Shown here: positions 15,001 to 21,000 of the stretch, piece after piece
How positions within the stretch are numbered: position 1 is the stretch's first letter
Layout of the letters: every line of letters starts with the position of its first letter
Assembly (NCBI RefSeq): GCF_003334385.1
Contig: NZ_QOWN01000030.1
Strand: one strand, 5' to 3'
DNA length: 57,197 nucleotides
Origin: Escherichia coli
GTDB lineage: Bacteria > Pseudomonadota > Gammaproteobacteria > Enterobacterales > Enterobacteriaceae
Position numbers: made by a program

Positions 15001-18000
15001 TCTGTTACCAATGCTCAAAATAAAAGCATGCTTACCTTGCTTTAGTATATTATAGCTTACACTTTTTTCTGGAAAGACATAAAAATCAGGAATAAGTTGT
15101 GCAAGTCTATCATCATCAACTTGATCCATAATCTCAAACTTATTAACTTTCTTTGATGTTAAATGGGCTGTGTCATAGTTTTCAATCCATGTGTATTCAA
15201 TATTTCGCCGTATTGATTTACTTTCTCTGTTACCTTGTTGCCAGGTTCCACTCAACGCAACAGTTCCTGTTTTATTTTTTTTGTTATACATAAAGTCGAT
15301 GGTAAGATTTGCTCGTCCCTGGTCATTAAAAATTACCCAATTTGCAGTGCATGTTTCGTTATATATCATTTTTTCTGCAGTGTAAGAATAGACAGTGAAG
15401 AGAATAAACCCACTGATAAAAACTAAAATAAATAATAAGTTTTTTTTATAATCAATCACGATTAACCTCACGGTAAGACAGGGTTAAACAGTTTGCCACT
15501 TCATGTTGGTTATAGTTTTTATTGCATGCCATAACAATCATCCCCGGTGAGGATTTTGCAAGAGGGAAGTATAACCACGGATGTTTTTTACAGTTAATCC
15601 CCGAATCCAGTATCCGTGTTTTATATTTATCGAACTCTTTCAACCCATCAATTGTATCTTCTGTTACATTAAAATGGCAGCCATTAATTTCCGCAACAGT
15701 CTTGTAATCCTTGAAAAATGGCTTCGGTTGATTATTATTCCATAGCCAATATGCAGAATATGCGCCTATGACAAATGCGCTCAACATAATTAGATGACTT
15801 TTTATATGTTTGAGGATTTTGTTATTGAAATTCTTTGCGCCACCAATGCTCTCTTTGTATCCCGCATTAACTTTTATGGCAGGTGGGGCATTGTGTGTAT
15901 GTGCGTCTGTTGACGAGTTTATTACATGATTTTGTATGTTAATGTCATTATGGATCTTGAATCCTCTTCTCGGCACGGTTGCAATTAGCGAGTGGGTAGT
16001 ATCACCAACAGCGCGAAATCCGCGTCTGATAATGGATATGTTCTGATATAACGTGTTAGTAGGCACACGCATACCTTCTTCTTCCCAGACTCTGGTGAAA
16101 AAATCTTGTTGTGCAACCACATCAGGAAAAGCTTCAAGTAGAAGTGATAAACATCGACTGGCTGGCGTTGTCAGAACGACGTTAAGATCGGCGTTATGTA
16201 CCGATATTAATTTTCGGTGCTCAGGCCAGAACTCGATATTATCGTTAATAATCCAGTACATACGTCAATAAACACTAAATCAATCGAAATGGAGATCACA
16301 TAGTTTGCTAAGTATATTGGTATTTACGGCATAAATATATATTAATTTTATATTTATCATGATGATTGAAATGAGGCTTTAATGTTGCAACGTAAAACTT
16401 TACGTAAATTAACATGGTTAACATTTATGCCACTATTGTTTGTAAATTCATATTTCGTAATGCTTCTGAATTTTTCGTGTGATGGTTTTAAATACTATGG
16501 TGTTTACTCTTGAGGGGACGGCCTATTTATAAAATACGGACATTTCAATAAATGCCCGTATAAACAGAGTATGATTCTGGCTGGTCGTTGAGTATCAATG
16601 TTGGACCGAATGTGAACGAATAAATAATTCGTTTATTTTACCACCCATTCTCTTTTCGATTCGTTGCTTGTACGCGTAGATGCTACGGATATCCATATCC
16701 AGAACTTCAGCAATCTGATATGGATTATAACCAGAAACCATATACCCCATTATGGTGAATTCCATCTGAGTTAATGTGTTACCTCTGGTAAATGATAAAT
16801 AACGACCAATAAATAGTTGTCTGATCTTTTCATTGGCAACATCAAGACCATCATCATTATATATGACAGCAGATATTGCTGAGTTGTGTTTTCGCCAGTA
16901 ATTAGCTAACGATTGCATATTGCGGTCGCTGACTAAAACAATCCCCATGTCAGTACTTGCAAGATAGTCAATCCAGTCTTTTTCAAGGAATAGACGTAAA
17001 AAACTTACTGAAAAATCGACAAAAATATATCCGCTTAATCTCGCATTGTGGTTTTTTGTTAAGATACCTTCTACCACACCACGATTAAAATATGAACTTT
17101 CTTCGGGCCACATACAAAAACACGAGTTTGCGCAATACTGCAAACGCGGTGACTCTTCTGGCATTATTTGGCAATGCATTGAGCAACTATTGCATGTAAG
17201 ACTTTTATAACGACTACAAAGCCCCATGTTAAGAACCTCCCTATCCGTATATAATTGCATAATTTCATTGGTTATTGATGATGTCAATACACCATGATTT
17301 TGTAATTTTGCCGGGAAAAATTGCGATTAATCTGTATTTGCTATAATTCTGAGTAAGGCATTTAAAAATGCATTTCTCGTTATCAAATATGATTATGTTT
17401 CACTGATTTAATCTTGCATGGTTGAGAGCGGTCCAGATAACTATCTCATGGTATAAGAATATCTATATCGCAAATTGTTTTTGAATGACCAGAAGATATC
17501 TTGCGAATCTAAGTTATGCATCTTAAATAGTCTTATTTAAGATGTTCAGATCTCTTTGTGTGTTTAACTAACTGATAATACTAGGATATGACGAGAGAAG
17601 TGATAGGGTGGAATAATAACAAATGAATATTATGAAAAATGGAATGGTTCAAAATTGTAGCAATTTTGAACCATCCACAACTGATATTAGCTAAAGAACA
17701 TTACCGATACGCACAGGATACCCACGATCAGCGTAATCAGATTTCCGATGGAACGCCAGGGTTTAAGCGCCGGGATGAGATATGTTGACAGCGTAGGCAT
17801 GATGAAAAGTATCATGGCAATGAGCGGGCCGCTGATCGCGTAAATCATCGAAATCGCGTTCGGGTTAATGCAACAAACAATGAAGGTAATCAGCGATACC
17901 AACATAATTGATAGTGCGCGGTTAAATGCACGACTTTTCTTTACACCAACCTGCTGTAGTGTTGTTTTGACGACCTCTGTGGCACCTTCAATAACGCCAA

Positions 18001-21000
18001 AGTACGTACCCAGGAATGATTTCGACATCGCAACTACTGCGACAATAATCCCGGAAATTGACAACCATGCTGGGGCGTTCGGCAGCATAGAAAGCGCCGA
18101 TAAAATGGTGACCCCTTCTTCTTTAGCAGCTTCAATATACGAAGGTGGAATAGAAAGCAGGCAGCTAAAGACAAAGAACAGTACACTTATGCAGATGATG
18201 AGATAAGCGACTTTCATAATTTTTTTGCATTTATCCATAGCGTGTTCGCCATATTTTTCACGTCTGTCTATGGCAAACGTAGAAATAATGGGCGTATGGC
18301 TAAAGGCGAAAACCATCACGGGAATCGATATCCATATCTGGTGAAGGGTATTCTGATTGAACTCTACCTGGGTTGTTAATAGATCAGGTTGCCAACTACC
18401 GACAAGGTAAATGGAAAGAAATAAGAAATAGGCAATCAATGGGAATACCAAAAATCCCATTACCCGAATAGTGGCATGACGTCCCATCAGAAAAATGAGA
18501 TTCAGAATTAATACAACACCCAGACTCACCAACATACGGATGCGAAGATCAATAACCATATGCTTTGCCAGCTGTTCCGTAAGTGAGTTGGTAATTGCCA
18601 CTGCATATATCAACACGACGACAAAAAAGGCGATGAAGTACAGCGTGGTAATCAGATTACCAATCTTCTTGCCATAGTAGTGTGTTACCGCGCCCGTTAT
18701 CCCTTCACCTGCTGATGTTTTTGATGAGAGGATGAACTGGCACAAGGCTTTATGTGGCCAATATGTTAAAGGCCAGGCGACCAGAGCAGTAATAAACAGG
18801 ACCACAGCCCCTGCCGAACCTAACTGAATAGGAAGGAAGAGCGTGCCTGCACCAACGGCTGTGCCGTAGAGCGCGAAACTCCACAGAGTTTCTTCTTTAG
18901 ACCAAATATTAGACATTATCTGAACGTATCATCTACAAATTAAACAAAATGGAGGGCAATTTACCATAAACCAGGTTAAGTATGGGAGATTAACGCCCTA
19001 TCTACCCCTCTATTGGTGGGTTAGTGGTTGCAAACCTTACGTGCCAGTTATGTCTCTGACTGCTGCTCAGGCATATTTCCTTTGTGATAAAAATCACTTT
19101 TTTTAAACAATTAAGATAACTGTAATTAACAATCATTTACTATTGCACTGTTAATTGGTGCGAGGTTGTGATGAAAGACGTTGTGATTGTCGGGGCGTTA
19201 CGGACACCTATCGGCTGCTTTCGTGGTGCGTTAGCGGGTCATTCCGCCGTGGAACTTGGTAGTCTGGTCGTGAAAGCGTTAATAGAACGTACCGGCGTTC
19301 CTGCATATGCGGTGGATGAAGTAATTCTTGGTCAGGTGTTGACTGCAGGGGCAGGGCAGAATCCGGCAAGGCAATTGGTCAGGTGTTGACTGCAGGGGCA
19401 GGGCAGAATCCGGCAAGGCAATCGGCTATTAAAGGTGGTCTGCCTAATAGCGTTTCTGCAATCACTATTAATGACGTTTGCGGTTCCGGGCTTAAAGCAC
19501 TGCATCTGGCTACTCAGGCGATACAGTGTGGCGAGGCTGATATTGTCATCGCCGGTGGCCAGGAAAACATGAGCCGCGCACCACATGTTCTGACTGATAG
19601 CCGCACCGGTGCACAGCTTGGCAATAGCCAGTTGGTTGACAGTCTTGTGCATGATGGGTTGTGGGATGCCTTCAATGATTATCATATTGGTGTCACCGCC
19701 GAAAATCTGGCTCGCGAATATGGCATCAGCCGTCAGTTGCAGGATGCTTACGCACTTAGCTCGCAACAAAAAGCGCGAGCGGCGATTGACGCCGGACGAT
19801 TTAAAGATGAGATCGTCCCGGTAATGACCCAAAGTAACGGGCAGACGTTGGTTGTTGATACCGATGAACAGCCACGCACTGACGCCAGCGCAGAAGGCTT
19901 AGCCCGTTTAAATCCTTCATTTGATAGTCTCGGTTCTGTGACAGCGGGTAATGCATCATCCATAAACGATGGCGCAGCTGCGGTAATGATGATGAGCGAA
20001 GCCAAAGCACGAGCGTTGAATTTACCCGTGCTGGCCCGCATTCGCGCATTTGCCAGCGTTGGTGTAGATCCGGCATTGATGGGAATTGCGCCGGTGTATG
20101 CGACCCGCCGTTGCCTGGAGCGTGTAGGCTGGCAGTTGGCTGAAGTCGATCTTATCGAGGCTAATGAAGCGTTTGCTGCACAGGCGCTTTCGGTTGGCAA
20201 GATGCTTGAGTGGGATGAGCGTCGGGTCAATGTCAATGGTGGCGCGATCGCACTCGGTCACCCGATAGGCGCTTCCGGTTGCCGAATCCTGGTTTCTCTG
20301 GTTCATGAAATGGTGAAACGTAATGCCCGCAAAGGACTGGCAACGCTTTGTATCGGCGGGGGCCAGGGTGTGGCATTGACCATTGAACGTGACGAATAGC
20401 TCTGCATTTCCTCCTTACCGATAAATATCTGCCGTCATTAATCTGTTGAATAATGATGGCTGGCAAGTCGACATACATTTTCTGGGCTCCCTCATTTTTC
20501 CATTCTCATGACATATTCGTGATCGACACTGCACTTTTTTTAATCCTTAATTTAAAAATGAAATATTGTTTTATTTTTAATTGAAAACCCTAGCCCATGG
20601 GCATATCATCCCTTTATAGAGAAAACGAAACAGTGTTTCACTATCGTTTTCTATTTTCACGCTTCACTGATTATCGGAGGTTGATGTGGACGTAAGACAG
20701 AGCATCCACAGTGCGCACGCAAAAACGCTGGATACCCAAGGGCTGCGCAATGAATTTTTGGTTGAAAAGGTATTTGTCGCCGATGAGTACACCATGGTTT
20801 ACAGCCACATTGACCGAATTATTGTTGGCGGCATTATGCCGATAACTAAAACGGTTTCCGTTGGCGGGGAAGTTGGTAAACAACTCGGCGTAAGCTATTT
20901 CCTTGAACGTCGCGAGTTAGGTGTTATCAATATTGGCGGTGCCGGTACGATTACTGTCGATGGCCAATGCTATGAAATCGGTCACCGCGACGCCCTGTAT

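Follow-up and report, generated by a model that had tools for sequence, protein, structure and literature searches.

The DNA considered here, a window of 57,197 nucleotides from Escherichia coli (contig NZ_QOWN01000030.1, assembly GCF_003334385.1), is chromosomal and contains a step in base composition where an AT-rich block of about 17 kb, recognizable as part of the ETT2 type III secretion island, meets the gene yqeG. The first 25 kb of the window are 99.9% identical to strain SCU-104, and all 5426 complete E. coli genomes match some part of them. In SCU-104 the order from the left is actS, glyU (tRNA-Gly), ygeQ, the insertion sequence (IS) IS421, type III secretion system (T3SS) remnants (SpaN/EivJ, SctQ, R, S, T and U) and regulators, then EprH-K, OrgA, ygeK, ygeI, ygeH, ygeG, yqeK, yqeJ, yqeI and yqeH, and finally yqeG, yqeF, kduI, kduD, araE, ygeA, lysR and lysA; glyU lies ~2.4-3 kb to the left of the position equal to window position 1. 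The remainder of the window is K-12-type backbone, with galR, omrA/B, aas, lplT, tas, mutH, rppH, ptsP and lgt, and further on thyA, ppd, recC, ptrA, recB, recD, argA, amiC and tRNA-Met.

Published accounts describe ETT2 as an island of 29.9 kb and 36.9% G+C that adjoins glyU (PMC3977695, PMC11068852), with a gene list running from ECs3703 (yqeH, 693 bp; the first gene) to ECs3737 (PMC3977695), located between yqeG and glyU and absent in phylogroup B2 (PMC7058095); the published chromosome has 50.8% G+C. The AT-rich block in the window can be assigned to this island, in a degenerate state, on several grounds. It lies between the same two genes, with yqeG at 17687-18916 and glyU on its left in SCU-104, while strain EcN joins glyU to yqeG. 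Its gene content comprises epa/epr/eiv T3SS genes of the type found in SPI-1 (pathogenicity island 1 of Salmonella) together with ygeH, ygeG and yqeHIJK, in the published order (SCU-104 RefSeq annotation, tblastn). Its G+C is 0.344 against 0.520, and the G+C of third codon positions (GC3) is 0.31 against 0.56. Finally, its distribution is as described for ETT2, which B2 strains lack and most other E. coli carry, often in degenerate form: the island edge occurs in 4115/5426 complete genomes, and the empty junction in 1218/5426, including the B2 strain EcN.

The first-pass annotation had described an AT-rich left part, with long A/T runs and proteins rich in Asn, Lys and Ile, and typical enterobacterial composition on the right, and both halves of that description hold. 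In 1-kb sliding windows G+C is 0.31-0.39 from 1 to 17.5 kb, 0.41-0.46 from 17.5 to 19.5 kb, and ~0.46-0.56 rightward, where the lone local dip reaches 0.43 at ~35-36 kb. At 200-bp resolution the climb runs from the 3' end of yqeG (~17.7 kb) to the start of yqeF (~19.2 kb). A Bernoulli change-point fit puts the single best break at 19156 with a log-likelihood ratio (LLR) of 751, against a null mean of 10.9 and maximum of 33 (200 permutations of 100-bp blocks); the best break within the core alone reaches 10.5 and that within the island alone 7.9. The three-segment optimum has breaks at 17703 and 19186 separating G+C values of 0.343, 0.432 and 0.520, a log-likelihood gain of 21.8 over the two-segment model. 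The step is real and well beyond chance, and the G+C profile is not flat between 15 and 20 kb, where all of these breaks fall.

Other measures also separate the two sides of the window; the G+C figures of 0.344 and 0.520 apply to 1-17512 and to 19171 onward to the window end. Runs of A/T of at least 6 occur at 2.86/kb on the left and 0.95/kb on the right, those of at least 8 at 0.46/kb and 0.05/kb, and A/T-run density is overall 3-9x higher on the left. Asn, Lys and Ile make up 6.6%, 6.3% and 8.9% of island proteins and 3.6%, 2.6% and 5.9% of core proteins. GC3 averages 0.307 ± 0.036 in island genes (n=19) and 0.558 ± 0.038 in core genes (n=25; range 0.480-0.641). Synonymous codon usage, scored as an LLR in bits per codon, is foreign in the island (-0.16 to -0.45) and lies between +0.20 and +0.36 in the core. 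The last island gene, yqeH, follows the island pattern (G+C 0.373, GC3 0.33, codon LLR -0.25).

Comparison with island-free genomes places the border in the yqeH-yqeG spacer, close to where the first-pass annotation had suspected it. Empty junctions are of two types. In the B2 type, found in 22% of the complete genomes, glyU is joined to yqeG and homology with the window begins at 17513; EcN has 316 bp from glyU to yqeG with nothing between, in the order glyU, segment A (78 bp), segment B (56 bp), segment C (the 174 bp of window 17513-17686), yqeG. The second type is that of the island-free Escherichia sp. MOD1-EC7003, with DNA identity to the window of 96.7% in yqeG and 95.2% in araE, which reads glyU, part of A, segment D, C, yqeG; homology resumes at ~17467, and the crossover lies at ATCGC, a 5-bp microhomology common to glyU-side segment A and to D, which opens with it. 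This second junction was found in none of the 5426 complete E. coli genomes. Segment C is kept in every aligned Escherichia locus, island-bearing or island-free. These alignments indicate that the island border lies inside the 400-bp yqeH-yqeG spacer, not right of 17513 and possibly at ~17467. The spacer segment 17288-17512 is present in 4115 of the 5426 genomes, and partial matches have left breakpoints at 10721, 15591, 16677 and 16836, besides the large class at 17513 or 17516.

Immediately beyond this spacer, yqeG is a conserved backbone gene and not island DNA. Of the 5426 E. coli genomes, 5415 (99.8%) have it at no less than 95% identity, and orthologues with 73-99% amino-acid identity occur in 80 Enterobacteriaceae loci, in Citrobacter, Salmonella, Enterobacter, Klebsiella, Kluyvera, Raoultella and other genera; yqeF adjoins yqeG in ~69 of the 80, usually accompanied by kduD, kduI and araE. 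The predicted protein matches TIGR00814 (6.9e-155), its 516 bits being slightly below the 525.8 cut-off. The earlier remark that yqeG looks intermediate is correct for its total G+C of 0.444, and fails as a sign of a transition zone of the island, as its GC3 equals that of yqeF both in the window and in 43 species. Its GC1, GC2 and GC3 are 0.459, 0.385 and 0.488, GC1 being the outlier; GC3 lies inside the core range (z = -1.8 versus core, +5.1 versus island) and matches yqeF (0.49-0.50), and the codon LLR is +0.09. In the 43 species with complete data, the total G+C of yqeG is 8.1 points under that of yqeF, whereas the GC3 difference is only +0.021, and yqeG GC3 tracks that of the host (r = 0.87) and does not remain low irrespective of it in this set.

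The low total G+C of yqeG arises mainly because a hydrophobic membrane protein rich in Ile, Leu and Phe (Ile 12.0%, Leu 12.5%, Phe 6.4%) lowers GC1 and GC2. From the protein, a G+C of 0.474 is expected with core codons and 0.381 with island codons, against the observed 0.444. About 5 points of the 8-point deficit come from amino-acid composition and about 3 from synonymous codons that lean slightly toward AT, a tendency present in part in yqeF too. The spacers flanking yqeG have G+C of 0.31 on the yqeH side and 0.37 on the yqeF side. The intermediate zone of 1.5 kb is one core membrane-protein gene between two AT-rich spacers, and not partly ameliorated island DNA.

Taken together, the step very probably marks the yqeG-proximal border of a horizontally acquired, AT-rich ETT2 island lying between glyU and the backbone gene yqeG. 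The horizontal origin that had been proposed for the 1-17 kb block is borne out by its identity as ETT2, its absence from 1218 of 5426 genomes and its foreign codon usage, and the literature agrees (PMC3977695, PMC11068852, PMC7058095). It is hardly credible that the block is made of resident genes rendered AT-rich by local mutation bias or functional constraint. The lack of an integrase and of flanking direct repeats would suit such an origin, as would the age of the island, which occurs in E. albertii and the cryptic Escherichia clades (PMC4700944); however, the GC3 difference lies at synonymous sites, the block as a whole is lacking in 22% of E. coli genomes and in MOD1-EC7003, other genera hold unrelated inserts in the yqeG-glyU interval (0.9 kb to >10 kb), and the genes are those of a SPI-1-type T3SS. 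Extending the island to include yqeG, with the true border in the yqeG/yqeF spacer at ~19156-19170, would agree with the best single change-point, with a total G+C for yqeG that is 4.7 standard deviations below core genes, and with a codon LLR lower than that of every core neighbour. Such an extension is nonetheless extremely improbable: it is refuted by island-free genomes, which retain yqeG beside glyU, the gene occurs in 99.8% of E. coli genomes, the yqeF-yqeG synteny is family-wide and reaches outside Escherichia, GC3 follows the host, and the published limits of ETT2 begin at yqeH (PMC3977695). Loss of yqeG from island-free genomes, or its travel with T3SS genes elsewhere, was looked for and not seen. 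Since yqeG belongs to the backbone, the strongest break at 19156 is not the island border. Several observations nevertheless weigh against placing the border at the near side of yqeG. The strongest statistical break lies in the yqeG/yqeF spacer, away from the comparative border; synonymous usage in yqeG is only weakly core-like beside its neighbours; ~3 of the 8 points of its G+C deficit are unexplained by the protein; the two island-free junction types differ by ~46 bp, and the original insertion point is not fixable to the base; and the mechanism of insertion is not visible, with neither an annotated integrase nor a tRNA-derived direct repeat at the right end.

How the empty junctions arose is a separate matter. 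The B2-type glyU-yqeG junction has been taken as a pristine, never-occupied site (Ren et al., 2004, as cited in PMC7058095), in which case the island would end on the right at exactly 17512/17513. The clean junction common to 1218 genomes fits this view, as does the presence of segments A and B beside glyU in the full-ETT2 strain AHB6 (glyU-A-B, then island; SCU-104 lacks A), as would result if the island had simply been inserted between B and C. Yet island-bearing genomes read A-B...D-C, the B2 type keeps B without D, and MOD1-EC7003, itself island-free, keeps D (17467-17512) without B; therefore no more than one of the empty types can be a pristine insertion site, and one or both are deletion scars. 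The C-D-yqeH side of the junction also occurs in E. albertii and in two genomes of the cryptic clades, and the island is reported to have been gained before E. coli and E. albertii split (Ooka et al.; PMC4700944), so the B2 state would be a deletion. A pristine B2 site is a possibility, if a doubtful one; given the junction comparison and PMC4700944, loss of the island in B2 would be the more parsimonious reading. A reading in which the AT-rich block is both composite and older than usually stated is rather unlikely when its two parts are taken jointly. Under its first part, neither island-free junction is pristine and at least one, probably both, would be deletion scars of an island present in the ancestor of E. 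coli and E. albertii. Under its second, the yqeG-proximal regulator module (yqeH and yqeI/J-like genes) may occupy the yqeG-glyU hotspot as an element in its own right; in Citrobacter amalonaticus and C. sedlakii a 78%-identical yqeH lies at 1.9 kb from yqeG, without T3SS genes within 10 kb. If the module were indeed separate, the boundary in composition at yqeG would be older than the T3SS cluster.

The yqeG-glyU interval is a recurrent insertion hotspot, given the unrelated inserts found there in various genera. The glyU-actS pair lies within 1 kb of yqeG in a few genera; elsewhere unrelated inserts of 2.6 kb to >10 kb intervene. The yqeG-glyU distance is 0.29 kb in MOD1-EC7003, 0.94 kb in Huaxiibacter and Lelliottia (two small genes), 2.6-8.8 kb in Enterobacter, Leclercia, Silvania and Pseudenterobacter, and >10 kb in Citrobacter, Salmonella and Klebsiella. 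The 0.94-kb spacers were considered as a pre-insertion reference and proved uninformative, aligning with Escherichia only over glyU and ~20 bp of flank. The yqeH homologue downstream of yqeG in C. sedlakii and C. amalonaticus (loci L006, 13095-13718, and L008, 11260-13815; also L009 and L012) has 73-74% DNA identity and a GC3 of 0.50-0.56, against 0.66 for the host yqeG; yqeI/J-like genes lie near it, followed in C. amalonaticus (L008) by rcnA and an Stb-like fimbrial operon. No T3SS genes were present near it within the 10 kb examined. In Escherichia sp. E1V33, a 4.9-kb island remnant (yqeH, yqeI, yqeJ, ygeH) lies between yqeG and glyU (L004, 11691-15905), and identity to the window drops steeply along it: YqeH 95%, YqeI 71%, YqeJ 70% and YgeH 62%. 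MOD1-EC7003 lacks yqeF, kduI and kduD, with araE ~1 kb from yqeG (L003, 9007-10001).

A plausible history would begin with a single ancient insertion of an AT-rich SPI-1-like T3SS cluster beside glyU, in the glyU-yqeG hotspot, followed by lineage-specific deletions, IS-mediated and other, of which IS421 at the window start, IS1 in strain 74-2 and the ragged breakpoints would be examples. The island keeps a donor-like composition at all three codon positions next to a backbone of normal E. coli composition, and its AT-richness may have persisted under silencing by H-NS. AT-rich DNA is a known target of this protein, and in strain 042 it is reported to repress ygeH and the operons of ETT2 (PMC4210603). 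No integrase is annotated between glyU and yqeG in SCU-104, nor beside glyU in AHB6. Comparison of the glyU side with 17228-17700 for att-like repeats gave no shared word of at least 9 bp (1.43 expected by chance), the longest being 8 bp, and an integrase-type insertion signature was rejected for want of a shared 9-mer; no tRNA-derived direct repeat was found at the right (distal) border, only the ATCGC microhomology.

The copy in the window shares with published ETT2 its locus between glyU and yqeG, its gene order inward from yqeH, its low G+C (0.34 versus 36.9%) and its attrition, seen here in the inserted IS421, in frameshifts and in an eiv deletion of 8.9 kb compared with O157. It does not differ in kind, being another degenerate isoform almost identical to the SCU-104 copy. 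SPI-1 of Salmonella enterica is AT-rich, carries a related T3SS gene set (inv/spa/prg homologues) and is silenced by H-NS through a HilA-type regulator, whose counterpart in ETT2 is YgeH. However, SPI-1 occupies another chromosomal site and is intact and functional, whereas ETT2 is mostly degenerate, per the cited literature. The block also resembles tRNA-associated pathogenicity islands (PAIs), such as the uropathogenic E. coli PAIs at selC, pheV and leuX or the locus of enterocyte effacement at selC, in that an AT-rich virulence-type cluster stands beside a tRNA gene, with a sharp compositional border and strain-variable presence. Unlike these, ETT2 has neither an integrase gene nor a tRNA-derived repeat at its distal end, and its junction lies 64-142 bp downstream of glyU, not within it.

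The border as such is already known, as ETT2, its low G+C and its glyU-yqeG position have been published since 2001-2004, and beyond correct annotation the finding is of little consequence. What is added is the base-level breakpoints at 17467 and 17513, a demonstration that the composition of the YqeG protein makes the strongest change-point overshoot the true border, and the finding that the two kinds of empty site are incompatible with each other. A distance of ~1.7 kb separates the change-point from the comparative border (17467-17513) because a core membrane-protein gene, yqeG, lowers total G+C, which cautions against setting island limits from total G+C alone. The incompatible empty sites have a modest bearing on whether B2 strains never had ETT2 or lost it.

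The features on either side of the border are collected in Table 1.

Table 1. Features of the ETT2 border region, in window coordinates
Feature	Position	Strand	Description
ETT2 island body	73..17466		G+C 0.34; SCU-104 annotation, GC3 0.31, island codon usage, published gene list (PMC3977695); contains sctQ/R/S/T/U remnants, etrA-like regulator, eprH-K, orgA, ygeK, ygeI, ygeH, ygeG, ygeF, yqeK, yqeJ, yqeI, yqeH
yqeH	16595..17287	-	LuxR/EcpR-like regulator, last island gene
Island-side spacer	17288..17466		yqeH promoter region; missing from both island-free junction types (alignments)
Segment D (46 bp)	17467..17512		In island-bearing genomes and MOD1-EC7003; missing in B2-type E. coli
Segment C (174 bp)	17513..17686		yqeG 3' flank, G+C 0.299; minimal conserved border side starts here
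Palindrome	17519..17544		Perfect, AT-rich, CATCTTAAATA-n4-TATTTAAGATG, 11-bp arms; 6 bp inside B2 breakpoint
Terminator-like hairpin of yqeG	17642..17676	-	16-pair stem, then CATTTTTCAT; intrinsic type; conserved in Escherichia alignment
yqeG	17687..18916	-	Serine/threonine transporter-family (STP/HAAAP) permease; core gene
Divergent yqeG/yqeF promoter spacer	18917..19170		G+C 0.366; change-point 19156 at right edge
yqeF	19171..20399	+	Acetyl-CoA C-acetyltransferase; first gene with fully core composition

The palindrome, which has the yqeG terminator on one side and the yqeH promoter region on the other, persists in genomes lacking the island and is among the best-conserved spacer blocks in E. 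albertii and the cryptic Escherichia clades; it may serve to bind a protein. Scanning 16000-20800 against Rfam (E <= 1) gave nothing credible, the sole match being CRISPR-DR8 inside yqeF at 21 bits against a gathering threshold of 39, and a promoter scan found 5 sites against 5.9 expected, no better than shuffles. The spacer segment 17288-17512 is unusually diverse within E. coli, with 2328 genomes at 90-95% identity, 752 at 95-99% and 1035 at 99% or more, while yqeG is at 95% or above everywhere; strain 74-2 carries its IS1 at ~17445. For yqeH, the RefSeq start is the ATG at 17227, and the 693-bp open reading frame (ORF) from the TTG at 17287 corresponds to ECs3703; its NCBIfam EcpR-like match (1.7e-20) is under the curated cut-off.

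At the left edge of the window, positions 1-72 are the end (~72 bp) of an IS4-family IS421 copy within the island; the transposase gene lies directly to the left in SCU-104, and window 1-89 also matches E. coli plasmids. Single-base deletions relative to SCU-104 at 2563 (sctS) and 6138 (eprH) add to the mutational attrition of ETT2, eprH being split here into ORFs 5678-6205 and 6295-6867 and intact in SCU-104. To the right of the border, yqeF is frameshifted by a perfect 47-bp tandem duplication (19328-19374 / 19375-19421) that leaves ORFs 19168-19389 and 19383-20399; SCU-104, K-12 and the 12 top-ranking E. coli matches do not have the duplication, and in them a 171-nt query covers only 124 nt. 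Further right, galR and aas flank the small RNA genes omrA and omrB (28419-28702), and a tRNA, tRNA-Met in SCU-104, occupies the right edge of the window (57124-57197).

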